From sequence record NC_024793.1: DNA of 46,847 nucleotides. One strand, 5' to 3'. Positions 21,261-46,341 of the stretch are shown here, piece by piece. The position numbers and the translations under genes were made by a program. The stretch's first letter is position 1, and the number at the start of each line of letters is the position of its first letter. The notes under the pieces are model-generated. The model saw nothing but the letters and a program-made list of their open reading frames with translations. It was not told the DNA's origin and did not search any database. Source of the DNA: Escherichia phage vB_EcoS_AHP42.

Positions 21261-22223
21261 TTAGTAGAAGCTAGGAATAAATGGGAGTGCCATTGATATG
21301 TTTGTATCAAATGGGAATTGTGCGCCAGTTTGAGTTGAATAGTTACCTATAACAGTACCAGGAACAGCTCTAACTGAACCGCCAGACATGCAAATACCCT
21401 TGTATCGTAAGTTATTATATCCACCAGTGACTCTAGTTGTCGCTCCACATCTAAGTATTGGGAAGAACCCACCATTCACTGACTGGTAACCATTATTAAT
21501 CTGCATAAATCCACTTAGAACAAATGGCCTCCTGACGCTAGAGAAAACTATCTGCCCAGCGCTGTTTGATATCGTTAAACCCGGACCAGCTACTGGAGGT
21601 GTATTATTGAAAATAACTAACTGAACGTAAGTACTTGCAGCAACATCATCAATCCCATTGTATGTTATATCCCTACACCATATCGTACTACCATCACTTT
21701 CAAGGGATACGTTTGGGTTATCCCATTTACCAAAAGGAATGCCGCCAACTGGCAATGATGCAGAGCCATTAACCTGGATGCCACCAACCCAAGCAGCAGT
21801 CATTAATCTGGAATTGCTTGATATCGCTGTAAAGTCAGTCGAGTTCTCAACAAGGACACCGGGGCTTGATTGTGATGATGCTGGTAAAATCTCAAAGCAC
21901 TGACCGCCAAACTGCAATATGCGACCATTAGCGCCGTTAAAGTTACTTAATGTAATCCTTCCAACCCCATCATTAACCTTCGAGAACCCATTCATGTAAT
22001 AAACTTCTGGTATAACATCATATGCATCAACATAAACAGCCTGAGTTGGCAGGCAGAATGCTGTTGAGCCAGGAGTCATAGTCAGACCGAAATCCCATGA
22101 TGATGCTGGTGAGCTTAACCCGCTAGTGTTTATTGAACCAGTCACGGCTGGAACTCTCAAGCCAGCTGTGATTTCCATTGCTGGCCTTCCGTCATTCAAA
22201 TCTATCAAGATACCTTGAGGCAT
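21261..22223 (-). CDS. hypothetical Ser/Gly/Asn-rich protein (possible receptor-binding or exclusion partner)
   Basis: 320 aa from the ATG at 22223 (AAGGAG RBS); overlaps the upstream lipoprotein stop by 1 nt (TAATG); convergent with the J-like gene. Confidence 0.45.
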   Translation of the reverse strand: MPQGILIDLNDGRPAMEITAGLRVPAVTGSINTSGLSSPASSWDFGLTMTPGSTAFCLPTQAVYVDAYDVIPEVYYMNGFSKVNDGVGRITLSNFNGANGRILQFGGQCFEILPASSQSSPGVLVENSTDFTAISSNSRLMTAAWVGGIQVNGSASLPVGGIPFGKWDNPNVSLESDGSTIWCRDITYNGIDDVAASTYVQLVIFNNTPPVAGPGLTISNSAGQIVFSSVRRPFVLSGFMQINNGYQSVNGGFFPILRCGATTRVTGGYNNLRYKGICMSGGSVRAVPGTVIGNYSTQTGAQFPFDTNISMALPFIPSFY

Positions 22224-22468
22224 TATTTCCACTCCTTTGAGCCGTGATCTGCAACTGAGCCGCCGTAGCCTCCGCCAACCTTTGACTCAATGCCAGCATA
22301 ACGAATATCAACCTCTCCAGCTGCAACAATAACACCACCTTTCCACTTAGCTACGCAAACATCACCCGCCTGAGTCGCACACCATCCGTCAGGGCGCGGA
22401 CCAGAAGAACAACCTACCGTCATGATTACTGCTGCTGCGATGATTGCTGATTTGATGAAGTTAGTCAT
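22223..22468 (-). CDS. small lipoprotein, Cor-like superinfection exclusion candidate
   Basis: 81 aa with lipoprotein signal [22 protein letters not shown]; first gene of a minus-strand unit driven by a palindrome-associated promoter; next to tail-tip genes as cor is in T1/phi80-like phages. Confidence 0.5.
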
Positions 22469-22508
22469 TTTGTATTCCTTAGTAAGTATGTTTCGTTTCG
22501 ATGGAGTA

Positions 22509-22553
22509 ACTATAGCAAAGGCTTCTGCTGGAGTCTTTAGCAAATCGTGCTAT
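22509..22553 (-). promoter_or_regulatory. dyad-associated promoter (minus strand) for the Cor-like operon
   Basis: Minus strand: TAGCAC-gat-TTGCTA, 22 nt, TGcTATAGT, then TCCATCGAAACGAAAC leader. Confidence 0.55.
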
Positions 22554-22650
22554 TTGATATACGCGTAACCGATGTAACTCGATGTATACAATCTCATACG
22601 CGGAAAATTGTATACGCTTTTTACGCGAAGATACGCATTATTTACACTAT

Positions 22651-22730
22651 AGAATCCTTATATAATAAGGGTTTAGAGTAATTATTATTATTACTATATT
22701 TGTTTGTATATAGTGTAACTACTCTCTATA
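22651..22730. repeat. AT-rich repeat block A, homologous to 42346..42440
   Basis: TCCTTATATAATAAGGGTTTAGAGTAATTATTATTATTACTATAT...TGTATATAGTGTA; preceded by four ATACGC repeats at 22558..22636. Confidence 0.6.
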
Positions 22731-23016
22731 GCTATGTTGGTGTGTTTTTCTAAAAGACTATGTTTGATTTCCTGTTAAGGAGGAAATGCATATAGATATA
22801 GATAGGGTGCAAAAGTGGTGGATACATTGGTTACAAGAGTTACACTCAGTATCCATGCGGCGTACAGAGTCGCAAGACGTATTCAGGTGCGTTTTACGTA
22901 GATATACAGATAGCACGAATAATCAAAACTGATGCTTCCTGATTGGTTATAGTGCACTCACCGGCAGCAGTGGTGCTGCTTTTGATGCAAAAAAAACTGC
23001 ACCACAAAATCCGGGA

Positions 23017-23766
23017 GTGAAAATAATTCAACCCCAAAAACTAGAGATGATAGATATGAATCTGATTAATATTGATGAAAACGTAACCATGAGCAGCCTT
23101 GAGATTGCTGAATTGACCGGGAAGCGTCACGATAACGTAGTAAGGGATACTAGAGAAATGCTGAATGATAATGAGATATGCTCAGGATTTAGCCAATCTC
23201 ACTCCTCAAATTTGAGGAGTGAAATTCAAAATGAATCTCGCGGCTCAAATGTGGACCGCCAGATTAAACACCCATTTGAATCTGAGTACAAAAACTCAAG
23301 AGGCCAAACTCAGCCATGCTTCAACTTACCATATCGTGAAACCATGATTTTGATGGTTGGTTACAACAGAAAGGTAGCCGCAAAGATTGTTGACCGCTGG
23401 CTACACCTTGAGCTGGAAAACAAGCTCCTTAAAGAGCACATGAAGAAGATGGTTTCACTTGATGAGGTTAAGGTTTACAAAGTTGAGACGGCATCAGCAA
23501 AGGCTGCACAGCACAGAGCTGAGGATAACTATTACGCAATTGAGAAGTTCATGTTTAAGAACATGGATAAGTGCGAAAATCCTGCAGAACTTGATGAGCA
23601 ATACTTCGATGTTAAATTCGAGTCAAATCGTTACCATGACTCTCAAGAGTTGGTTTACAAGTACCAGGCTCAGCTTGAGGTTGCTTGCGAGAAGTTAAAG
23701 GCTAAAGATGATCTGATTGCCAATCTGGTGCATAAAGGCGAACCGCTTAAGCTTGGTAAAAAGTAA
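23017..23766 (+). CDS. Rha-family phage regulatory protein
   Basis: N-terminal TMSSLEIAELTGKRHDNVVRDTREML and LPYRETMILMVGYNRKVAAKIVDRW resemble the Rha domain. True start may be an internal ATG at 23047 or 23056. Confidence 0.65.
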   Translation: MKIIQPQKLEMIDMNLINIDENVTMSSLEIAELTGKRHDNVVRDTREMLNDNEICSGFSQSHSSNLRSEIQNESRGSNVDRQIKHPFESEYKNSRGQTQPCFNLPYRETMILMVGYNRKVAAKIVDRWLHLELENKLLKEHMKKMVSLDEVKVYKVETASAKAAQHRAEDNYYAIEKFMFKNMDKCENPAELDEQYFDVKFESNRYHDSQELVYKYQAQLEVACEKLKAKDDLIANLVHKGEPLKLGKK

Positions 23767-29086: not shown

Positions 29087-30010
29087 CTATGAATGCTTAT
29101 CTATCAGATCTTGCGGGTTATATAACCTTCTTTCAAGCCCCATCTTGAAATTGCCACCTTTAGGTATTACGACTTTTAGACCTCTATCATCAGCAACATA
29201 AAGCGACTCCTTTTCATCAGCTAAGCAAGCTATCCTGCACTCTTTATTCCTGAGTTCATAAGCAACCATTTCTAAGTTGTGGTGAGTTAGGCAGTCGTAA
29301 GTTGTCCTTTTTGTGCATGCCGATACATGTAGTGCGTTAATCCAGCCAACAGTGAGGTAGATAGCTCCATCACTACATTTACTTACCGGAACAACCGAGC
29401 CGCGAGTGTAGTCTTTTGCGAGATATGACTCATTACCCTCTTCATCTATAAACTTTACGTTACAAGGCTCATCTGATAAACCATCCTCGTAAACCATAAA
29501 GCATTGCTCGGCTATAATTTCTTCTCCAGACCCCTTTATTCCTATTTTGTATTCCCGTTCAGTAATAATTGCTTCAAATCTCGTAAGCTGTGTCATTTCT
29601 ACAGACTTGGTGCGAGATATTACCTTCTCGATTGATTCAATGGATGCCTGAGCGCCAAAGTTATATCTCTGAACTCGGCTCGCTGCTTTGTTTGCCTTCA
29701 CTATGATTTCGACGGGAGTCAAATTAAGCCAGTCGCCAAGTAAATTTATAGCTTCCGCAAATCTAAGGCCGGAACATTTCATAACCCATCCTATTCCTGA
29801 GTCACTGCCGCACTTAGAGCAAACTGCGGCCCCATTACCTTTTTCGCTTCCTATTTCGTCTGTAAACCTGAATCTGTCAGTACCAAAGCAATAAGGGCAC
29901 GGCCCGTGCTTCTTGCTAAGGTGTCTATCATTCCAACCAAGCTCCTTTGCATAAAATGATTTCCACAATCCAGCCATTTTAGGTATTACTTCATTCTTGT
30001 CGTAATTCAT
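29087..30010 (-). CDS. putative DNA primase (zinc ribbon + TOPRIM-like)
   Basis: Zinc ribbon CPYCFG...CSKCG near the N-terminus and an acidic TOPRIM-like region; followed by a minus-strand terminator. Confidence 0.5.
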   Translation of the reverse strand: MNYDKNEVIPKMAGLWKSFYAKELGWNDRHLSKKHGPCPYCFGTDRFRFTDEIGSEKGNGAAVCSKCGSDSGIGWVMKCSGLRFAEAINLLGDWLNLTPVEIIVKANKAASRVQRYNFGAQASIESIEKVISRTKSVEMTQLTRFEAIITEREYKIGIKGSGEEIIAEQCFMVYEDGLSDEPCNVKFIDEEGNESYLAKDYTRGSVVPVSKCSDGAIYLTVGWINALHVSACTKRTTYDCLTHHNLEMVAYELRNKECRIACLADEKESLYVADDRGLKVVIPKGGNFKMGLERRLYNPQDLIDKHS

Positions 30011-30062: not shown

Positions 30063-30536
30063 TTACTCTTTAGCTTTTCGTGCTTCTTCTCTTTCTTTCT
30101 TAACCTTTCGCCATGATTTACGCTGCGGCTTGGTTGCTAACTCAGCTTCTGTAACAACTCGAAGCATCTGACGCTTCTTGCATCGCAGTGTTAGAGGCTT
30201 GCCGTTACCGTCGAACTGTAAATCAGGTCGGCAGAATGTAGCCCTGAACCCCTCGCCAGTTCGCTTATATCGATTATGCGCAAGCTGTGCGCCGCGAGCT
30301 GAAATCATTCCCCGCTTACACCATTCTTCTACAGCCTGGCGCGTAACCTTTAGCTGCTTAGCTAGATTGGCCTTGCTGCCGTAGAAGTCCAATACAATCT
30401 CAAGGCGCGCCCTTAATCCTGCTCTCACTTCATCCTTTAGTACATAGTAACCTGATGGACGCTTACGCGGCTTCTTGTCTTCTGTGCGAATTGTTCCGTT
30501 GTTACCATTAAGAGTACGCTTGTCAATTGAATCCAT
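30063..30536 (-). CDS. basic HTH DNA-binding protein (candidate transcription regulator)
   Basis: 157 aa, very basic, with HTH-like SKANLAKQLKVTRQAVEEWCKRGMIS; divergent from the helicase gene, with the dyad element between the two starts. Confidence 0.5.
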   Translation of the reverse strand: MDSIDKRTLNGNNGTIRTEDKKPRKRPSGYYVLKDEVRAGLRARLEIVLDFYGSKANLAKQLKVTRQAVEEWCKRGMISARGAQLAHNRYKRTGEGFRATFCRPDLQFDGNGKPLTLRCKKRQMLRVVTEAELATKPQRKSWRKVKKEREEARKAKE

Positions 30537-30628: not shown

Positions 30629-32572
30629 ATGGAAAACCGATTGAAAACAATACAAAAACAGATTGAAGAATTGGGCGAAGATAAGATTAAAGAGATTCAA
30701 ACTAAATTCACCTCTTCTAACGGCATGGTTCCGTATAGCTATCAGTGTGTTATGTACAATGAGATTGCAAAGCGCATTAGTCGCTATGAGCATCCATTTA
30801 TCGCAATGGCTTCAGTTTCTGCTGGTAAGACTCTGGTTTTTGGTATGGTTGCTAAGCGTTGCTCTGAGCTTGGCTTGCCTATGCTTGTTCTTGCTCGTCA
30901 GGCAGAGCTGGTTAGCCAGAATGCTTCTGAGATTTCTGATTACGGGGTTCCTAACTCCATTTATTGCTCTGGGCTTGGAATAAAATCATCTTATTTCCCT
31001 GTGGTGGTTGGCTCTGAGGGCACAGTAGTTGGCGGGCTTAAGAAGTCACTTGGCGATTTCTGTCCTGCGGTAGTTGCTATTGATGAGTGTCACCATATTG
31101 ATGACCAGGACATAGCGGAGGCAATTGATAACAATGAGACTGCGCAACAGGCATCAGATAAGGGGCGTAGCCAGTATACGGTCATCATCCTGACTTTAAT
31201 GGAGCGCTGCCGTGCTAAGTATGGCAAGAATCTTCGTATCTTTGGACTGACTGGTTCTCCTTTCCGTGGAACTACGCCAATAGTTGTTGAAAACAAAAAG
31301 GAGTTGGGATTTTGGCGTGAGACGGTCACAAATATCGATACAAACTACCTGGTCGAGTTCGGTTCCGTGGTTCCGACAAACTTTGGTGCTACTGATGGCG
31401 TTGGTTACGACCTGTCAGAGTTTGATGCATCATCTGAAGATGGTGTTCAGGATTACACTAAAGCCCAGCTTGAAGCCATGGATAAAAAGATTCAGGCATC
31501 TGGAACAATGACAGCGGAGATAATGAAGAAAGTATGGCTTGCCGCGAAAAACAGGAATGGAGTTCTGGTAACATGCGCAGGTGAGCGCCATTGCCACGAA
31601 GCCGCAAGTTACCTTCCTGAAGGTGAAAAGTTCTGCATTATAACTGGAAAGACTGGCGAGAAGCAGCGCAAGGAGTTGCTTGATAAGTGCTTTAGCGGGG
31701 AGATTAAATATTGCTTTCAGGTTCAGGCGCTAACCACTGGCGTAAATGTGCCTACATGGGATACAAGCGTTATTCTGCGTAAGATTGGTAGCCTTACGCT
31801 CCTGGTTCAGCTACTTGGTCGAGGAATGCGTAAGCTTAAGAAGCTCCATGAAGATAAAGGAATGGTCAAGAATGACCATTTGGTACTGGACTTCGCAGGA
31901 ACGATGGACTCTATGGCATCATTGTACTTCAATCCAATTCTTGAGCAGGCTCAATATCAGCTACGAAAGAGTAATGGCAAGGAGACTAAGCAGTGTCCAG
32001 TATGCGGAACAGAGAACAGCTTCTTTGCTCGACGTTGCATGCATATTGATGAGAATAATAATCGCTGCGAATATTTCTGGGTTAGTCGCACATGTGAAGA
32101 CCAGAAAGACCCACGAACCGGAAAGGTTATCGTTAAAGGCTGCGGAGTTCAGAATGACGTTGCAGCTAAGATTTGTAGGGGTTGCGATTGCACTTTGCTT
32201 GATCCAAATCTCAACTTAAGCGGCAAACATTACCGCAAGAACGACTGGTTTGATGTTGTTGACTTTAAGGTTGGGCTAACAAAGAACCAATCAGGAATCA
32301 TCTACAACTACATCCTTGATGATGGCATGGGTGGGACATTCAAAGCTCATGAGGTTTTCTTTGTAGAGTCTGACCATCGAGTATGTAAAACGCTCTGGTT
32401 GAACAATGGAATTAAAGGTCACGTAGTCGACATGAACGCTAAGCGATATATGGCTGCATATCGCAATGCTCGCAAGATTATGGAGTATGCGCAGTACATC
32501 CATGCCCCTAAGAGGGTAACTCACCGCAAGACCGCTAAAGGTGGCGATAATATTGCTAATAAGGAGTTCTAA
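30629..32572 (+). CDS. SF2 helicase (DEAH-type) with C-terminal zinc ribbons
   Basis: Walker A SAGKT, DECH box (VAIDECHH) and C-terminal Cys clusters. The track start at 30578 lies inside the conserved promoter/leader, so the ATG at 30629 is used. Confidence 0.75.
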   Translation: MENRLKTIQKQIEELGEDKIKEIQTKFTSSNGMVPYSYQCVMYNEIAKRISRYEHPFIAMASVSAGKTLVFGMVAKRCSELGLPMLVLARQAELVSQNASEISDYGVPNSIYCSGLGIKSSYFPVVVGSEGTVVGGLKKSLGDFCPAVVAIDECHHIDDQDIAEAIDNNETAQQASDKGRSQYTVIILTLMERCRAKYGKNLRIFGLTGSPFRGTTPIVVENKKELGFWRETVTNIDTNYLVEFGSVVPTNFGATDGVGYDLSEFDASSEDGVQDYTKAQLEAMDKKIQASGTMTAEIMKKVWLAAKNRNGVLVTCAGERHCHEAASYLPEGEKFCIITGKTGEKQRKELLDKCFSGEIKYCFQVQALTTGVNVPTWDTSVILRKIGSLTLLVQLLGRGMRKLKKLHEDKGMVKNDHLVLDFAGTMDSMASLYFNPILEQAQYQLRKSNGKETKQCPVCGTENSFFARRCMHIDENNNRCEYFWVSRTCEDQKDPRTGKVIVKGCGVQNDVAAKICRGCDCTLLDPNLNLSGKHYRKNDWFDVVDFKVGLTKNQSGIIYNYILDDGMGGTFKAHEVFFVESDHRVCKTLWLNNGIKGHVVDMNAKRYMAAYRNARKIMEYAQYIHAPKRVTHRKTAKGGDNIANKEF

Positions 32573-32961
32573 TGGTTAAGGTTTTTCACGACAAAACAAG
32601 CACGGACAAGGCTAAAGAGGTTGTTCACCAAATAAATTCAATAGCTTGGGTTCGCCACAACCATCCAGAGATATTTGCTTTTCACGTGAAGAATGAAGGT
32701 CTCAAGTCTATCGGCACAGCAATGAAGGACAAGCAGGAGGGAGTAATTAAGGGTGTATCAGATATTCTACTGATTGGACCAAATGGCTTTGCCGCAATAG
32801 AGCTTAAGCGAGCAATAAAATCAGATAGCAAGGTTTCAAAGGAGCAAAAGGAGTTCCTGGAAAAGGTATCAGAAACAGGAGGTTACGCGGCAATCTGTTA
32901 TGGGTTTGAAATGTTTAAGTTGGCAATTACAGATTATCTATCAAATGGCACGAATTGCTAA
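32572..32961 (+). CDS. putative VRR-NUC nuclease
   Basis: 129 aa with GVSDILLIGPNGFAAIELKRA...SKEQKEFLEKVSETGGYAAICYG, resembling the VRR-NUC D-E-K core; ATGG overlap with the helicase stop. Confidence 0.55.
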   Translation: MVKVFHDKTSTDKAKEVVHQINSIAWVRHNHPEIFAFHVKNEGLKSIGTAMKDKQEGVIKGVSDILLIGPNGFAAIELKRAIKSDSKVSKEQKEFLEKVSETGGYAAICYGFEMFKLAITDYLSNGTNC

Positions 32962-32988
32962 AGAGATTTCGCAAGGATGCGATATAGT
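32946..32988 (+). promoter_or_regulatory. dyad-associated promoter
   Basis: TGGCAC-gaa-TTGCTA overlapping the VRR-NUC stop, 22 nt, TATAGT, then TTCATCGAAACGAAGAGAG. Confidence 0.55.
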
Positions 32989-33019
32989 TACTTCATCGAA
33001 ACGAAGAGAGAGAAACAAA

Positions 33020-33214
33020 ATGACTACTACCTACACTGAAAAGCTGTACAAGTCACGCAAAACTGGTTATGAATATGAATTAGCAATCACCCCTGAGGGT
33101 TATATTCTTGATGATGGAGACGGTTACTCATTCGAAGTTAGCCCAACATACAAAGATGATTTAGAGACTGTTAAAAACGCATTCGGCGAAAAATTTGATG
33201 AGGTGTCAGAATAA
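33020..33214 (+). CDS. hypothetical protein
   Basis: 64 aa from the ATG at 33020, downstream of a palindrome-associated promoter and RBS; the track start at 32900 overlaps the promoter. Confidence 0.5.
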   Translation: MTTTYTEKLYKSRKTGYEYELAITPEGYILDDGDGYSFEVSPTYKDDLETVKNAFGEKFDEVSE

Positions 33215-33432
33215 TGAAATTAACCTTTGATAAGCAATGGGAACTCTTTCAGGCAATGGTGGCGCAGGAGTTGAGTAAAGCTGGATATAAAAATGATGTT
33301 TGGGATTTAGCTTGGTGTCTTGATTATAGTTTCGAAGAGGATTATCTGAACACTGATATCGAAACATGGCGCGACCGAATGATTGCTGATATCGAAGAAA
33401 TGAAGAAAGATTGCCCGGAGGATTTTTCATGA
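33214..33432 (+). CDS. hypothetical protein
   Basis: 72 aa, start overlaps the upstream stop. Confidence 0.45.
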   Translation: MKLTFDKQWELFQAMVAQELSKAGYKNDVWDLAWCLDYSFEEDYLNTDIETWRDRMIADIEEMKKDCPEDFS

Positions 33433-33629
33433 TTACTGCGACTTGCGTAATGACGAACGGCTCATTCACCCTGCTCAATGAGTATGAATTCAAACTTGAC
33501 CCGATTAATGACCAGGTTGAAATAGTTAGCGATGACGGATTTGCATGGAAGTTACATAATGAATTTGATGGGTACTACGGGTGTAATGATGCGAAAGGTA
33601 AGCATGTAAGTTTTCTTGTTTATGAGTAA
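33411..33629 (+). CDS. hypothetical protein
   Basis: 72 aa overlapping the upstream gene by 22 nt. Confidence 0.4.
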   Translation: MPGGFFMITATCVMTNGSFTLLNEYEFKLDPINDQVEIVSDDGFAWKLHNEFDGYYGCNDAKGKHVSFLVYE

Positions 33630-33630
33630 A

Positions 33631-33673
33631 TAGCACTTTTTGTTAAAACTAAAATACAAGGATGGATTATATT
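33631..33673 (+). promoter_or_regulatory. dyad-associated promoter
   Basis: TAGCAC-ttt-TTGTTA, 22 nt, TATATT. Confidence 0.5.
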
Positions 33674-33703
33674 AATTACATCAGCAAATGAGAGGGTTAA
33701 GAG

Positions 33704-33829
33704 ATGAAAATTGTAGACAAAGAGATGTTCGAGATTGCGCAGTCTTTCGCAAATGACGCAGTTAAGACTGGATCTGAATATTGCTGGATGTGCGCTCGAG
33801 AATATTTAAAAATGGCTTACGGCCTATGA
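33704..33829 (+). CDS. hypothetical small protein (41 aa)
   Basis: Not in the track (under 60 aa); good RBS GAGAGGGTTAAGAG-ATG after a palindrome-associated promoter; stop overlaps the next ATG as ATGA. Confidence 0.45.
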   Translation: MKIVDKEMFEIAQSFANDAVKTGSEYCWMCAREYLKMAYGL

Positions 33830-34065
33830 TAGTTGAAAGCGGACGCGCCGCTGTATGGGCGCATTGTGGAGAGGCGGGATTGCAGGATGACATCAAGATG
33901 ATAGGTAAATACTTTGATATTGATGACATATCTGTAGTTTTCAATGGGAAGTTTAGTTATATGAACCAGCGGCCACGCAAGTATGTAAGAGTTCCAGCAA
34001 CGCCTAGCCTCGCAATGTATCGCGAGGAAGGTAAGAAGATATTTAAGAAAGGTGCGAAGAAATGA
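33826..34065 (+). CDS. hypothetical protein
   Basis: ATG at 33826 is coupled to the upstream small ORF; the track start at 33781 is a TTG with no RBS. Confidence 0.45.
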   Translation: MIVESGRAAVWAHCGEAGLQDDIKMIGKYFDIDDISVVFNGKFSYMNQRPRKYVRVPATPSLAMYREEGKKIFKKGAKK

Positions 34066-34319
34066 ATTTACCTGGTCTAGATTTTGCTGAGAGTAAGTAT
34101 CAGGTTGTGTTTTTTGGTGAGAAGCCTTATCGGAAGATTCCTTTCTCTGAGTGGATTCCTCCGGACTACCTCGATGTACTGGTGCAAATTGAGATTGGTA
34201 AAGCTGAGTTGATGTACTATTCGCCAGGTTGCAATATGATGATGCCTAGTGAGTATTCACCAGCAATTTCTGCTCTAGAAACTGAGTTTCTTGATTACTG
34301 GCTAAAAGAAGTAAAATAG
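34062..34319 (+). CDS. hypothetical protein
   Basis: 85 aa, ATGA overlap with the upstream gene; its TAG stop lies inside the next dyad element. Confidence 0.45.
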   Translation: MNLPGLDFAESKYQVVFFGEKPYRKIPFSEWIPPDYLDVLVQIEIGKAELMYYSPGCNMMMPSEYSPAISALETEFLDYWLKEVK

Positions 34320-34358
34320 CACTTTTTGTTAAAAACATCGCCACGGATGGCGTATAGT
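34317..34358 (+). promoter_or_regulatory. dyad-associated promoter upstream of the phosphoesterase unit
   Basis: TAGCAC-ttt-TTGTTA, 21 nt, TATAGT, then TTCATCGAAACGAGAG. Confidence 0.55.
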
Positions 34359-34386
34359 GTGTTCATCGAAACGAGAGACGCTTCAG

Positions 34387-34455
34387 ATGAAAACATTACT
34401 ACCGTTGCTGGCGGTACCAGTAACCTTTATAATCATGTACTTCATAATCTGCTAA
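34387..34455 (+). CDS. hydrophobic mini-ORF (22 aa, MKTLLPLLAVPVTFIIMYFIIC)
   Basis: Sits between a palindrome-associated promoter and the metallophosphoesterase gene; RBS-like GAGAG upstream. Confidence 0.3.
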   Translation: MKTLLPLLAVPVTFIIMYFIIC

Positions 34456-34469
34456 TAGGAAATTAAATA

Positions 34470-35606
34470 ATGGCTATCGCTAAAATCACCAACGAAGAGT
34501 TAAAGCAAGAACTGGCTAACGGTATGACTAACAAGGCAATCGCAGAGAAGTACGGTATGAATATTCGTAACGTAGAGCTGCGTCGCAGCAAGCTGGCTAA
34601 GGCTGGGGATGGTCACGGTCGCGATGTGAGTAACCTAATTCCTCAGGGCTACATGGTTAAAGGTGTATCTAGCCTTGTTGATAATGATGGCAATGTGAAG
34701 TTGCAATGGGTTAAGTCCTCTATTGATGCAGAGAAGCTTGAGGAGATGATGAATCAAGCGCGAGAGGCATTCTCTAGCGAGCTACCAAAAGAAAAAGCAG
34801 TTAAATCTGAAGGTCTGAATTTTGATGAAGATACTTTAGCTATGTATCCAGTATTTGACCTTCACATTGGCGCAATGGCCCACAAGCATGAGTGCGGAGA
34901 AAACTACGACACAGCAACGGCAGAGAAAGTAATGAACGATTATTTTGACTACGCCGTACAGAAATCTCCAAATTCAAAGAATGCTGTACTAGTGCTAGGA
35001 GGTGATCTGCTTCATTATGATTCCTTGGAAGCCAAAACTCCAGCCAGTGGTCACATCCTGGACAGTGACAGTCGCTACGCCAAGATTGTTTATGTTTGCA
35101 TTCGAGCGGTTCGCCGCGCAATTCGAAACATGCTTAGCAAACATGAAAACGTAGAGGTTAAAGTTATATCTGGTAATCATGATGAAAGTGGTATGGTTTG
35201 GTTGCGGGCTGCGCTTGCTGCATTTTATGAGGAAGAGCCACGCGTTAGTATTGATGTTAGTCCCGCGGCAATGATGGTAACTAAGTTTGGTTCTACAATG
35301 CTTGGTTTCACTCACGGGCATCAAATGCGTAAAGCTGATACTCGCCTTTCGGTTATGGCTACTGACTGGCGACGTGACTTTGGTTTAAGTGATTATGTAT
35401 ACACCCACTCAGGCCACTGGCATTCACAGAAGATTACAGAGACAAATCTTGGTATTGATGAGGTTCATGGTCAGCTTGGTTCACCAGATGCATATAGTGC
35501 GAATGGCGGGTGGCGCTCACAAAGGCAGGCTGCGGTAATCATATATCATAAAGAGTTTGGTGAGGTTGGTCGTTTTATCTGTCGCCCAGAAATGTTTAAT
35601 AAATAG
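34470..35606 (+). CDS. HTH-domain metallophosphoesterase (calcineurin-like, Mre11/SbcD-type motif order)
   Basis: N-terminal HTH-like MTNKAIAEKYGMNIRNVELRR, then DLHIG, GGDLLHYD, GNHDE and GHWH in the canonical metallophosphoesterase order. Confidence 0.6.
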   Translation: MAIAKITNEELKQELANGMTNKAIAEKYGMNIRNVELRRSKLAKAGDGHGRDVSNLIPQGYMVKGVSSLVDNDGNVKLQWVKSSIDAEKLEEMMNQAREAFSSELPKEKAVKSEGLNFDEDTLAMYPVFDLHIGAMAHKHECGENYDTATAEKVMNDYFDYAVQKSPNSKNAVLVLGGDLLHYDSLEAKTPASGHILDSDSRYAKIVYVCIRAVRRAIRNMLSKHENVEVKVISGNHDESGMVWLRAALAAFYEEEPRVSIDVSPAAMMVTKFGSTMLGFTHGHQMRKADTRLSVMATDWRRDFGLSDYVYTHSGHWHSQKITETNLGIDEVHGQLGSPDAYSANGGWRSQRQAAVIIYHKEFGEVGRFICRPEMFNK

Positions 35607-38348: not shown

Positions 38349-39938
38349 TTACCCCAACAGCCGTGGATTGATATATACCTTGTCACCAATCAGGCAGGTA
38401 TAGTTTTTATCATCAAGCATCGGCAATAAGTGGTCTTTAATTTTAGCCATAACACCAGCCTGTGACTCGAAAGGTCGAACCTTACGCGCAGCTTCATAAA
38501 GTGAACGCAAACCCACAACTCCTTTACTGTTCTTGCCTTGCTTGATAAGGATATCAATTAACTTGTTCATCTCAGCGTTATCGCCAGCATGACCAGCTGC
38601 GTTAGCTGAGGATAAGTAAGTCTTACTAAGTTCTCCAAACATCAACAAAGCCTCTTGCATGGTTTCCAGTTCAATCTCCCTGGACTTCTGCGGACTACCG
38701 CCATTTGGGTTAAACCAGTTACGGATAGTGTGAAGAACTGCAGCAATGCGAATTACCTGTTTATCCATTTTACCTAACGCGCCGCGCAGCATTGTGTGTG
38801 AATACTTACCGCCATCTGCAAGGTGTGGCTCCATTTCCTGTCGAGCACGGTTAAGGTGCTTCATTGCTGAGTTACTAATAGTCAACTTAACATCTTGCTC
38901 ACTCATAATTTCATGAACAAGACGGAAGTAATCAGCCTTCAACGCTCCGTCAATCGGCTCATATGTTGACTCGCCATTATCATCGACGAAAACACGCTCA
39001 CCAAGGAATGACTTTTCACGCACAAGCAAGAAACGTTCGGATACACCAATACCGCGAGCACCAGCATTCATGATTGCGACTATTGTTTCATCCTGCGCAA
39101 TTACAGAAATACACCCCATAGCAATAAAGCTCATGTTGTTCTCTGCGTTCGCACGCGCGATAGATACGTTACCAGCATCCCAGGCCTTAAGCACCAGTTC
39201 GCTGTTTGTTTTCTTTGTTCCATCACCATAGGTCATGCCCAGCAGTGAGTTGACGCTCGTCGCCTCATCCGAGATGACAGCGAAGCTACCCTGACGATGG
39301 TTAATGCGTGCCAGACCTTCGGGAGTAGTATCAGATACAGGGAATACGATGTCGCAAAGTTTCTCGAGCTTATCTTCCAGCTCCTCCTTCTCCTCAAACA
39401 AACCAGCCATCTCAGAAGGCGACTTCTCCTGCTTCATTTCTTTAGCCAGAGCCGACAGCTTGGCCATAATCTTTTTACGGTCACGCTTACGGAGCTCGTT
39501 TAGTCGCTCAGTCTCTGCAATCATTGGAGCCAGAGACAGCGAGTTAATGGCAGATTTACCAGTTGATGGAGGCTGGCTGGTCACTACATACAGTGATGTT
39601 GGTTGTTGAGTTCCGTGATACTCAACCGTAAAGCGACCTAACATAGCTGCCGAGATGCAACCAAGGAAGTGCATATAAGCAGATGATTCAGGAAACTGAA
39701 CAGAACGAGCAATGTTGCTTGATAGTTTGCCAACTACATCATAGTCGTTACCAAGCGAGATAACAGGATACTTGTCGCCAGTAGAATCAATCTCAACCGG
39801 AGCTTTCCAGAATGATGCGCTCTGGCGATAACCGTTCGCATTAATAGCAACACGTAAAGGAGGTAATCCATCCTGAGCGGCAACAGCCATTACTTGTTCA
39901 ACAGTCAATTTGTCATCATTAAAATCAAACATTATCAT
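38349..39938 (-). CDS. large conserved hypothetical protein (possible replication-associated; full-length paralog of 43251..43811)
   Basis: 529 aa; its N-terminal about 40 aa and C-terminal about 55 aa are paralogous to the 186-aa protein at 43251..43811. Confidence 0.55.
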   Translation of the reverse strand: MIMFDFNDDKLTVEQVMAVAAQDGLPPLRVAINANGYRQSASFWKAPVEIDSTGDKYPVISLGNDYDVVGKLSSNIARSVQFPESSAYMHFLGCISAAMLGRFTVEYHGTQQPTSLYVVTSQPPSTGKSAINSLSLAPMIAETERLNELRKRDRKKIMAKLSALAKEMKQEKSPSEMAGLFEEKEELEDKLEKLCDIVFPVSDTTPEGLARINHRQGSFAVISDEATSVNSLLGMTYGDGTKKTNSELVLKAWDAGNVSIARANAENNMSFIAMGCISVIAQDETIVAIMNAGARGIGVSERFLLVREKSFLGERVFVDDNGESTYEPIDGALKADYFRLVHEIMSEQDVKLTISNSAMKHLNRARQEMEPHLADGGKYSHTMLRGALGKMDKQVIRIAAVLHTIRNWFNPNGGSPQKSREIELETMQEALLMFGELSKTYLSSANAAGHAGDNAEMNKLIDILIKQGKNSKGVVGLRSLYEAARKVRPFESQAGVMAKIKDHLLPMLDDKNYTCLIGDKVYINPRLLG

Positions 39939-41999: not shown

Positions 42000-42027
42000 G
42001 TTTCTTCTCCTCTCTGTTGATTAGCAA

Positions 42028-42072
42028 ACTATAGCCAGTCATGGTGGATTTGTCTTTAGCAAAAAGTGCTAT
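42028..42072 (-). promoter_or_regulatory. dyad-associated promoter (minus strand)
   Basis: Minus strand: TAGCAC-ttt-TTGCTA, 22 nt, TATAGT, then RBS GAGGAG for 41781..41999. Confidence 0.55.
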
Positions 42073-42345
42073 TCGTCAGATTTATGGATTGTTGCAGGCA
42101 TTGCGATGATTAGCATGACTATTACACATAAAGCAATATTTCATCGAGTGCAACAGGTTTATTGATTGTTGCCAGTTTGGCAATGATGGATGGATGGATT
42201 GAATGAAAGGAGGTCTGGATCAAATAGTTGGTTGGTTTTATCGCTCGCGGAGAGACTTCTTTTATATACGCGTAGTCCGCTGTCTACCGATTGTCGACCG
42301 TATCCACATTTACAATTTATACGCCTTGATATAATCCATATACAC

Positions 42346-42440
42346 TAAAATATCCTTATATATAAAGGACTTAGACTATTATTATTATTATATATAGTAT
42401 TATGTATATATAGCGTATCATCTGTACGCCACTATATAGG
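42346..42440. repeat. AT-rich repeat block B, homologous to 22651..22730
   Basis: TCCTTATATATAAAGGACTTAGACTATTATTATTATTATATAT...TGTATATATAGCGTA; flanked by TATACGC repeats, a (GATG)x3 run and the palindrome TTCCTACAcTGTAGGAA. Confidence 0.6.
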
Positions 42441-42630
42441 TTGGTTTGCTTAAATTTCTATTTTTATTCCTACACTGTAGGAATTGTACTACCTTGTAGG
42501 AAAATATAGGAGGATATAGCTAGAACCACCTCATCTATATGTAGACGCACGTAGACGCCTGTACACACCCAGCAACGATGCGGCATGCAGGGCAAAAAGC
42601 GTATCAATTTTAAAATAAACAAAAAATACA

Positions 42631-42659
42631 TTTATATACACGTAAATCTTTGCTATAGT
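42631..42659 (+). promoter_or_regulatory. putative early promoter without dyad (extended -10 TGcTATAGT, AT-rich UP-like region)
   Basis: TTTATA, 17 bp, TGC-TATAGT, followed by the conserved TTTCATCGAAACGAGG leader; AT-rich upstream; first promoter after the long noncoding region. Confidence 0.45.
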
Positions 42660-42708
42660 CATTTCATCGAAACGAGGCAACAAACAACAATCAACGAGAG
42701 GAATTATC

Positions 42709-43251
42709 ATGAGCAAAACGACCTTAGGTGAAGTAATTCGATTCATGGCTAAAAAGGCACTCCAGTCAGAAGATAAGGAGTTCAAGGTTCCAGTTCGAGA
42801 TATTTACCGACAAATTAGAGGTCATGATTACCCGGAAATGGAGACTGATGATAAAACCGGGGATATTATCAACCTTGGAGAGCGGAAGTTGAGTGAGTTA
42901 AAGAACTCATACATTCATAATACATTGTCACGAATGAGAGAGTTGCGTGAGGCTAAGTATATCGCCCGTTATCAATTCATCTGGATTGATGCGGATGGTG
43001 AAGATACCACGCCCCGCCAGTATGATGGCGATGGTGCTGATAAATACCTGCTAATCCATCTCACCGAGGGGGTTAAGGAGCCAAAAGCAAAACAAAGAGA
43101 GAAAGAAGAAAAGGAGCGGGCTGTTATTGAGAAGTTCAAATCTCGCTTGCTTAAGTTATCACCTAACGTACTGGATTTTGAAGGTGATGAGCTGACTGGC
43201 GCAGTTAAGGCTATCCGCATGTATCAAGAGATGATCAAGGAGTTTAACTAA
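42709..43251 (+). CDS. hypothetical early protein
   Basis: 180 aa, first gene after a long AT-rich regulatory region; promoter is extended -10 TGcTATAGT without the dyad. Confidence 0.5.
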   Translation: MSKTTLGEVIRFMAKKALQSEDKEFKVPVRDIYRQIRGHDYPEMETDDKTGDIINLGERKLSELKNSYIHNTLSRMRELREAKYIARYQFIWIDADGEDTTPRQYDGDGADKYLLIHLTEGVKEPKAKQREKEEKERAVIEKFKSRLLKLSPNVLDFEGDELTGAVKAIRMYQEMIKEFN

Positions 43252-46265: not shown

Positions 46266-46341
46266 GTTCTGCTGGCGTAACAGGATAACGCAGAGACCTC
46301 CTAAGTCTCAGTTGCTGGTTCGAGTCCAGCGCAGAACGCCA
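46266..46341 (+). tRNA. tRNA-Arg (anticodon CCT, reads AGG)
   Basis: Hand-folded 76-nt cloverleaf: 7-bp acceptor stem GTTCTGC/GCAGAAC, U8, D-stem GCGT/ACGC with GG in the D-loop, anticodon stem GAGAC/GTCTC, loop CTCCTAA, T-stem GCTGG/CCAGC, T-loop TTCGAGT, discriminator G and encoded CCA. Confidence 0.85.

Follow-up and report, generated by a model that had tools for sequence, protein, structure and literature searches.

In the SaPIs, which are pathogenicity islands of Staphylococcus aureus, the replication origin is built of 6-12 iterons, penta- or hexanucleotides, placed to either side of an AT-rich centre, with opposite directions on each side, and these iterons are read by the winged helix of the self-loading Rep helicase, which works with a primase (PMC9371898). 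The Cch2 protein of the staphylococcal cassette chromosome mec (SCCmec) binds iterons of 5 nt (PMC7581432). Phage SPP1 possesses two origins, oriL and oriR, each combining direct repeats with an AT-rich unwinding element, and the initiator binds to both (PMC6316719). In P4, 8-bp iterons with a spacing of 9-11 bp are found at two loci, ori and crr. The lambda-type origin carries four iterons of ~19 bp inside the initiator gene. In this paper we looked at an intergenic region of Escherichia phage vB_EcoS_AHP42 (sequence record NC_024793.1; the whole stretch of 46,847 nucleotides is called the window here). We suggest that the centre of this region, block A (positions 22554-22731, perhaps to about 22860), and its paralogue, block B, are origins made of iterons and an unwinding element, a reading to which we give a probability of about 0.55.

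T1 is one of the seven classic T phages, and its Drexlerviridae relatives are common laboratory contaminants as well as candidates for phage therapy. The place where replication of T1-family DNA starts is so far unmapped; the present analysis offers two precisely placed candidate sites, family-wide in occurrence, together with a candidate initiator and, on the estimate given above, the block A module would be the best candidate yet for this origin. No origin or origin-like repeats were identified in TLS (PMC11447400) or in SU57 (PMC7718038). In the literature we found no description of blocks A and B, the 2004 T1 genome paper aside, which may mention these AT-rich regions, and no transcript-start or marker-frequency data for any Drexlerviridae phage. 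If the origin reading is true, origins of the SaPI/SCCmec type, with a self-loading helicase, extend to a large family of virulent enterobacterial phages, and a handle for engineering or blocking the replication of these phages would be at hand. The analysis also sets aside a doubtful small gene of the same region and suggests a possible role for the hitherto unexplained 21-nt repeats of the family.

Block A and its paralogue

The window has the look of a complete genome and belongs to a T1-family siphovirus (Drexlerviridae, Rogunavirus; Rogue1/AKS96-like). Over 3 kb around the region, phage vB_EcoS_AKS96 is 98.7% identical to it, and Rogue1, JK06 and C119 are among the other relatives. The region is one of two long divergent intergenic regions of the genome, the other (region B) being located at about 42000-42708. 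A first-pass annotation, made from the sequence alone, had described it as a 470-bp AT-rich strand switch with four ATACGC repeats, a ATTATTATTATTA run, a homologous block some 20 kb away and a 48-amino-acid open reading frame (ORF), a combination that was said to resemble an origin or a dense regulatory region. The base composition and the gene orientation agree with this description, with a GC content of 36.8% against 44.0% in the window and with a cor-type gene on the minus strand and a Rha-like gene on the plus strand.

Block A is a conserved non-coding module on the plus strand, paralogous to 42262-42430, in which an array of short repeats is joined to an AT-rich core. It begins with TACGCGTAAC-CGAT-GTAAC, followed by TAC(G/A)C units, a TATATA tract, (ATT)4 and TGTATATAGTGTAAC. 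The repeat array (22560-22647, plus strand) contains five TACGC units (22560, 22597, 22613, 22622 and 22632) and one TACAC (22643); spacings of 9, 10 and 11 bp separate the final four, and a pair of GTAAC words at 22565 and 22574 lies within the array. Six TAC(G/A)C units are thus found on one strand within 94 nt, compared to 0.31 expected on both strands. The four ATACGC copies were also recovered, all on the plus strand (starts at 22559, 22596, 22612 and 22631). With 18 copies in the window, ATACGC is about as frequent as in shuffles (mean 18.2); it is the clustering that goes beyond chance, with four copies in 191 nt against 0.028 expected (p about 2e-8) and with 8 of the 18 window copies located no more than 200 nt from the two AT-rich cores (p about 1e-11). 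The hexamer itself did not hold up as the repeat unit: what is conserved in relatives is TACGC/TACAC, and ATACGC is the version of a looser TAC(G/A)C in this lineage. At the positions of the AHP42 repeats, Rtp has the words ATACAC, ATCCGC, ATACGC, TTACGC and TTACGC.

To the right of block A lies an arm (22732-22907, plus strand) which is conserved at the nucleotide level only in Rogunavirinae, contains the start of the small ORF discussed below and carries inverted repeats: a GTTAC pair (22830 and 22839), inverted relative to the GTAAC pair on the left, and GCGTA at 22860. Relative to the core, GTAAC is thus found twice upstream, and GTTAC twice together with GCGTA downstream at +113 to +143; the TACGC array is one-sided.

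The AT-rich core of block A (22658-22717), a candidate DNA unwinding element, comprises the TATATA tract and the (ATT)4 run at 22681-22693, for which the only other copy in the window is found at 42378-42390, in block B. Among all 60-bp windows of the genome, core A is the second least stable duplex (dG -59.8; mean -80.7, standard deviation 4.7) and the core of block B (42351-42410) is the least stable one (dG -56.6). We compared seven Drexlerviridae genomes of six genera in this respect (the AHP42 window, T1, 26174IV, T145P1, TH21, TLS and KP36), and in 7/7 no 60-bp windows are less stable than the two block cores, of which one lies upstream of recE and the second in the other of the divergent early regions. 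The (TTA)n microsatellite of the cores has from 4 to about 8 units; its length differs among phages and also from block to block within a phage.

The homologous block noticed at first pass is block B (42262-42430, plus strand), a paralogous repeat and AT-core module in the second divergent region. The blastn match between the two blocks has 72% identity over 101 nt (22613-22712 against 42311-42410, E = 3.6e-11), and a gapped alignment lengthens it to about 22554-22730 against 42262-42430 (~170 nt).

Other origin signals were looked for by reading the sequence of block A. The best candidate for a DnaA box, TTATTTACA at 22638-22646, matches TTATNCACA at 8/9 positions and was rejected, as its Rtp counterpart, TTGGTTACA, shows that it is not conserved; no clustering of GATC was seen in the block. 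The GC skew mirrors gene orientation and gives no independent signal.

Conservation in the family

Block A is 90-99% identical within Rogunavirinae and about 78-80% identical in Braunvirinae (Rtp, SU57, EC3a, T145P1 and others). Between the subfamilies this non-coding block is as conserved (about 79%) as the adjacent coding genes, and the similarity to Braunvirinae stops exactly at 22731. Blocks A and B are paralogous within every one of the seven genomes; in TLS the two share 75% identity over about 300 bp and in KP36 their cores are nearly identical. A joint alignment of 27 sequences (18 copies of block A and 9 of block B) gives a common skeleton, in which TAC units at steps of ~10 bp are followed by TC..TATATA..AA...TTTA, then by (ATT)n and by TGTATA..GT. 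The TAC units correspond to columns that are at least 90% conserved in the 27 copies.

The place of the repeats and their ~10-bp phasing are kept while the repeat word changes by lineage, TACGC/GTAAC being the words of AHP42. In KP36 the word is GTAAGAT, with 13 of its 19 genome copies in the two blocks, ten of them in block A, in both orientations and on both sides of the core. All three genome copies of GTGTAACAG in T1 flank the core of block A, and TTACGC occurs three times in T1 block B, where the two copies next to the core are 10 bp apart. TLS has GTGAACA, with 4/8 genome copies in the blocks, and LF82-10 has ACTACAG at a spacing of 10 bp in block A, where AHP42 has TACGC.

The two blocks of one genome are usually, not strictly, alike. 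In the Shigella phage Sd1 the core of block A is of the Rogue1 type (CCTTATATAATAAGG...TTTAGAG) and block B is of the Rtp/T145P1 type, with nearly identical flanks. Such a mixture of core types rules out a strict co-evolution of the blocks within each genome and indicates that subfamilies have exchanged region-B modules as a whole. The recE-erf-ssb module of KP36 (32253-35008) lies on the strand opposite to that in T1, TLS and AHP42, and block A is still found upstream of recE. Searches for related loci with single proteins, RecE and DUF7174, returned close relatives only.

Replication proteins and proposed mechanism

The T1 family does not possess its own DNA polymerase (TLS paper, PMC11447400). 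Among the proteins encoded in the window, the candidate for a self-loading initiator helicase is a DUF3987 'DNA helicase' (38349-39938, minus strand). Its AlphaFold2 model, built from an alignment of 27 sequences, is of high confidence (pLDDT 87.6, pTM 0.85) and ends in an H-E-H-H-E-E pattern, as in a winged helix. Comparison of the model to the PDB by Foldseek gave MCM subunits for all of the top 50 matches (best E = 1.4e-6), and we predict from it an AAA+ helicase of the MCM clade with a C-terminal winged helix, beside a separate primase. This primase (29087-30010, minus strand) has a zinc ribbon (Pfam Zn_Ribbon_Prim) and a TOPRIM-like region, and is homologous to the N-terminal part of the P4 alpha protein (BLASTP to residues 28-264, E = 1e-13). 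The DUF3987 protein showed no BLASTP similarity to P4 alpha. Further proteins of the window are a superfamily 2 helicase and a Cro/YdaS-like helix-turn-helix (HTH) protein (30063-30536); for the HTH protein and the DUF3987 protein, sequence search gave no PDB match.

Repeats, AT-rich core, helicase and primase match the design of origins that are opened by a self-loading helicase, and therefore we take block A to be one of a pair of origin-like modules. What the analysis shows is how the sequence is built, that this architecture is conserved and which folds the proteins are predicted to have; the steps from binding onward are those that we infer. A phage initiator would bind the phased TAC(G/A)C units and the GTAAC/GTTAC pairs that flank the core, the likeliest initiator being the MCM-like DUF3987 helicase, by way of its C-terminal winged helix. 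Melting of the neighbouring TATATA/(ATT)n tract, which is the genome's most easily melted DNA, would follow. That transcription drives supercoiling, as described by the twin-domain model, is established knowledge, and following this model negative supercoiling from the two divergent promoters may aid the melting. The helicase would then load itself, the P4-alpha-like primase would prime and the host DNA polymerase III would elongate.

A more tentative suggestion concerns the division of labour between the blocks. In this two-site system the MCM-like self-loading helicase would read lineage-specific iterons of 5-7 bp at both sites, with one of them the true origin, and the module at recE-erf-ssb would be either a second origin or a site with bound initiator similar to SPP1 oriR or P4 crr, where fork stalling or DNA looping could lead to a switch to the recombination-dependent concatemer mode. 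We consider this extended scheme possible, yet clearly less probable than the origin reading itself.

Comparison with known origins

The combination of iterons, an unwinding element and a self-loading helicase is of a known kind, of which the AHP42 blocks would be a new, family-wide member with a two-site layout. A close likeness is to the origins of SaPIs and other phage-inducible chromosomal islands and to SCCmec with Cch/Cch2, where penta- to hexanucleotide iterons, some of them opposed, flank an AT-rich centre and the words are lineage-specific; these elements code for a primase and for an AAA+ helicase whose winged helix is C-terminal (PMC9371898, PMC7581432). SaPI-like origins have ~6-12 short repeats concentrated at the locus, and block A has six TAC(G/A)C units together with the GTAAC/GTTAC units; an AT-rich, easily melted centre is present in the cores of both blocks. 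AHP42 also encodes an AAA+ helicase with a winged helix and a primase, the reading of the repeats by this winged helix being a prediction from the model. Opposed repeats on both sides of the core are clear in KP36 block A, whereas the TACGC array of AHP42 is one-sided, and no AHP42 block is located directly downstream of the helicase gene. AHP42 further differs in having two modules per genome and a helicase fold that is nearer to MCM than to Rep, and in being a virulent enterobacterial siphovirus; for its blocks, binding and melting are proposed.

SPP1 resembles AHP42 in having two origin-like sites kilobases apart, each with direct repeats by an AT-rich unwinding element and one of them intergenic, and in being a virulent pac-type siphovirus with a recombination set of exonuclease, annealase and single-stranded DNA-binding protein (PMC6316719). 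Its repeat units are different, and it uses the origin-binding protein gp38, a loader and a DnaB-type helicase, which have no relatives among the AHP42 proteins scanned.

P4 has two cis sites with the same iterons, ori and crr, as AHP42 has blocks A and B, and its alpha protein is homologous to the AHP42 primase over residues 28-264. The AHP42 primase, however, is devoid of alpha's helicase and origin-binding domains, and the words TACGC/GTAAC are unrelated to the type 1 iteron of P4 (TGTTCACC); only TLS has GTGAACA. The TLS repeats cGTGAACAcGTGAACAgcgatGGAACA (TLS 411-438) and the P4 type 1 iteron GGTGAACA (P4 9310-9338) have this 7-nt core in common at a similar spacing, which may be a coincidence or a shared specificity. 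The lambda-type arrangement is not seen in AHP42, where the blocks are intergenic and the units are of 5-7 bp.

Several points weigh against the origin reading. Divergent promoters often have AT-rich DNA between them, and short repeats might just as well serve as operators for a transcription factor. Unlike the origins of SaPIs, the modules, at 22.6 kb and 42.3 kb, are not adjacent to the helicase gene (38349-39938). The enriched words of T1 differ between the blocks (GTGTAACAG in block A, TTACGC and GATTAAC in block B), with only GTGTTAC-like words in common, and a single lineage-specific reader for both blocks is not proven because Sd1 mixes core types. Block A is always found upstream of the recE operon and moved with recE in KP36, which fits a regulation of recE as well. 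Finally, the TM-scores of the Foldseek matches are modest (0.31-0.37), and binding of the winged helix to the repeats is deduced from the similarity of fold only.

Flanking promoter-like elements and neighbouring genes

Both edges of the intergenic region are occupied by promoter-like elements of the T1 family. The leftward 'DR' element (22493-22553, minus strand; repeat families D4, D5 and D9) consists of a palindromic 21-nt repeat, ATAGCACGATTTGCTAA (22553 to 22537), of TATAGT (22514 to 22509) and of a conserved leader, CATCGAAACGA (22503 to 22493). The general form of the element is ATAGCAC-N4-TTGCTAA, 22-24 nt, TATAGT and leader, to which 22553 to 22509 on the minus strand is a strict match; this copy would drive the cor operon. 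There are 13 strict copies, all in the non-structural half of the genome and all pointing along transcription (13/13), with starts at 22553, 25069, 30549, 32945, 33630, 34316, 36160, 40235, 40433, 41395, 42072, 43795 and 44918. The 21-nt repeat is palindromic (TAGCA-N5-TGCTA), and in 13/13 copies its centre lies at -41.5 to -43.5 from the start that is deduced from the -10-like hexamer. As this is the position of a class II activator site, the elements may be activator-dependent middle promoters, for which a dimeric HTH protein such as that encoded at 30063-30536 is a candidate reader.

The 21-nt repeat is known from TLS, T1, Rtp and Rogue1, with no function assigned (PMC11447400). The left edge (22537-22553, minus strand) and a degenerate copy at 22910-22929 belong to this family of intergenic direct repeats, aaATAGCACnnnTTGnTAAAA (PMC11447400), which accounts for the edges of the region only and not for its central block. 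The degenerate copy is part of a rightward DR-type element (22910-22952, plus strand; repeat family D11), with ATAGCACGAATAATCAAAAC followed by TATAGT at 22947-22952. Its second half-site is degenerate, it overlaps the 3' end of the small ORF and it is predicted to drive the Rha gene. The element is kept in Sf12, phiEB49, Sd1 and AHS24 although the downstream genes differ.

The region as a whole is probably a composite, with divergent promoter-like edges, block A between them as a likely origin module (at the probability given for that reading), and a small ORF that is probably a chance frame. Each half of the first-pass phrase 'origin or dense regulatory region' is upheld in part, the regulatory half by the two edges and the origin half by the centre (22554-22731), which appears origin-like by design.

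To the left, the cor-type phage lipoprotein gene (22223-22468, minus strand; Pfam Phage_lipoprotein, E = 7.7e-38; annotated in AKS96 as a putative lipoprotein) heads the leftward operon and sets the left boundary of the intergenic region; a DUF6453 gene is its minus-strand neighbour. To the right is the Rha/anti-repressor-like gene (23056-23766, plus strand; Pfam Phage_pRha, E = 8e-18; PHROG 8235; AKS96_27), followed by recE, erf and ssb. The mechanical ORF of the Rha gene begins with GTG at 23017, and relatives have the ATG start (23056).

The 5' leader of the Rha gene (22955-23019, plus strand) can form a stem-loop. It includes a terminator-like hairpin, GCAGCA-GTGG-TGCTGC with TTTT (22963-22982), which was found by a terminator scan of the window and is annotated as a terminator in AKS96; the hairpin is kept in relatives and the T-run is present only in the window and AKS96. 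The 65-nt leader folds with a dG of -28.3 (z = -4.6), its minimum-energy fold being a longer helix that competes with the terminator-like hairpin (22963-22978) and involves, by pairing, the GGGAG immediately before the GTG at 23017. Only the window and AKS96 have the 3' half. Such a leader could act as an attenuator or as a translational switch.

In region B, 42600-42675 contains a good sigma-70-type promoter, made of TTTATA, 17 nt and TGcTATAGT (an extended -10). An A/T-rich UP-like tract comes before it and the family leader TCATCGAAACGA after it, whereas the 21-nt repeat is absent. Possibly the rightward operon that starts at 42709 has here its immediate-early promoter.

Alternative explanations

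The main rival to the origin reading is that the blocks are regulatory modules, block A controlling the recE operon and block B the rightward early operon. The repeats would then be operator or activator sites (for example for the Cro/YdaS-like HTH protein, 30063-30536) and the AT core an extra early promoter or an UP-like or bent-DNA element. In agreement with this, each block is located upstream of an operon and in the same orientation as it, and block A stays with the inverted recE in KP36. Direct repeats at a spacing of 10-11 bp are also typical of winged-helix transcription activators. The annotators of AKS96 and EC3a placed predicted promoters here, and weak promoter-like matches are found in both cores (TTTAGA-N17-TATATT at 22672-22700 and, when the sequence is read by eye, CTTAGA-N17-TATAGT in the copy of block B). 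Yet a sigma-70 promoter test of the AT core failed, with a best match of 9/12 and with two sites compared to 3.3 expected in shuffles. The (TTA)n tract between the -35-like and the -10-like hexamers varies from 4 to about 8 units, and therefore the promoter spacing is broken. At a distance of 150-250 bp each flanking operon already has a promoter-like element of its own and does not need the block for this purpose, and repeats in both orientations, on both sides of the core and in up to ten copies in KP36 block A, exceed a usual operator. We regard the regulatory explanation as a real competitor that is nonetheless rather unlikely.

More doubtful is the view that the main content of the region is a real small gene, for a Trp/Arg-rich protein of 48 amino acids made from a short transcript that ends at the 22963-22982 hairpin. 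The ORF described at first pass does exist (22786-22932, plus strand; 48 codons, 3 Trp and 6 Arg) and stands after a Shine-Dalgarno sequence, AAGGAGG at 22777-22783; it is not 'unannotated', since it equals AKS96_26 in KF771239 and belongs to PHROG 30596. The Shine-Dalgarno is 2 nt before the start (AAGGAGG-AA-ATG) and is kept in 5/8 relatives, and a terminator-like hairpin follows downstream. The annotation in AKS96 and the grouping as PHROG 30596, whose function is not assigned, only show that gene callers pick the ORF up, and it has no Pfam match.

Its status as a gene is not supported by the comparison of relatives. The orthologous ORFs of eight Rogunavirinae have 48, 48, 34, 42, 57, 45, 34 and 14 codons, a range of 14-57 codons among close relatives, and in AHS24 a stop is found at codon 15 and the Shine-Dalgarno is degraded. 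Over the first 34 codons the variable columns number 7/13/7 at codon positions 1/2/3, with a peak at position 2. The ratio of synonymous to non-synonymous codon differences is 53:186 for the frame of the ORF, 28:209 for frame +1 and 67:174 for frame +2, which gives no in-frame synonymous excess. Length variation, the 7/13/7 distribution and the lack of a synonymous excess are not the pattern of a protein under selection. The ORF is also absent outside Rogunavirinae among the relatives compared, and its 3' third is the next promoter element. As DNA, its first 75 nt are nevertheless highly conserved. Most likely it is a chance frame that runs across the conserved right arm and the next promoter. 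In region B, 42468-42513 holds a perfect hairpin, TTCCTACA-C-TGTAGGAA, a second hairpin, CTAC..GTAG, and then AGGAGG with no start codon in reach, in parallel to the Shine-Dalgarno ahead of the small ORF in region A.

It is highly improbable that the blocks are recognition sites of the small terminase (pac or pac accessory sites). Some pac sites, such as P1 pac, are short hexamer repeats around the cut; the place where coordinate 1 of the T1 record (the end with the 2.8-kb terminal repeat) aligns is ~120 bp from block B, and many T1-family records were opened in the intergenic region of block B. What makes a packaging role unlikely is that the design recurs in block A, which stands beside recE in mid-map, 20 kb from the genome end. 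T1-type phages, moreover, have one pac fragment (TLS paper on headful packaging), KP36 block A has more repeats than block B, and the better pac candidate is 42075-42210, a stretch with a conservation of its own that aligns with the T1 end. This non-coding stretch is rich in GTTGCA/TGCAAC words, and no other part of region B is so widely conserved (about 78-80%, in many records); its alignment, a weak one, is to the first 50 nt of the T1 record, at the end with the 2.8-kb terminal repeat.

A structured non-coding RNA from the block or from the small ORF region is just as improbable: a 286-nt stretch (22705-22990) folds somewhat better than shuffles (z = -2.2) and the leader (22955-23020) folds well (z = -4.6), yet this leader is specific to the window and AKS96, the small hairpin of the AHP42 core, CCTTAT-ATA-ATAAGG, is not kept in the Rtp-type core when the cores are aligned, and Rfam 15 gave no match in 22400-23100 even at E <= 1. 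At the gathering threshold, Rfam found in the whole window a tRNA only, whose gene is located at 46266-46338 (58.8 bits); the published relatives have one arginyl-tRNA.

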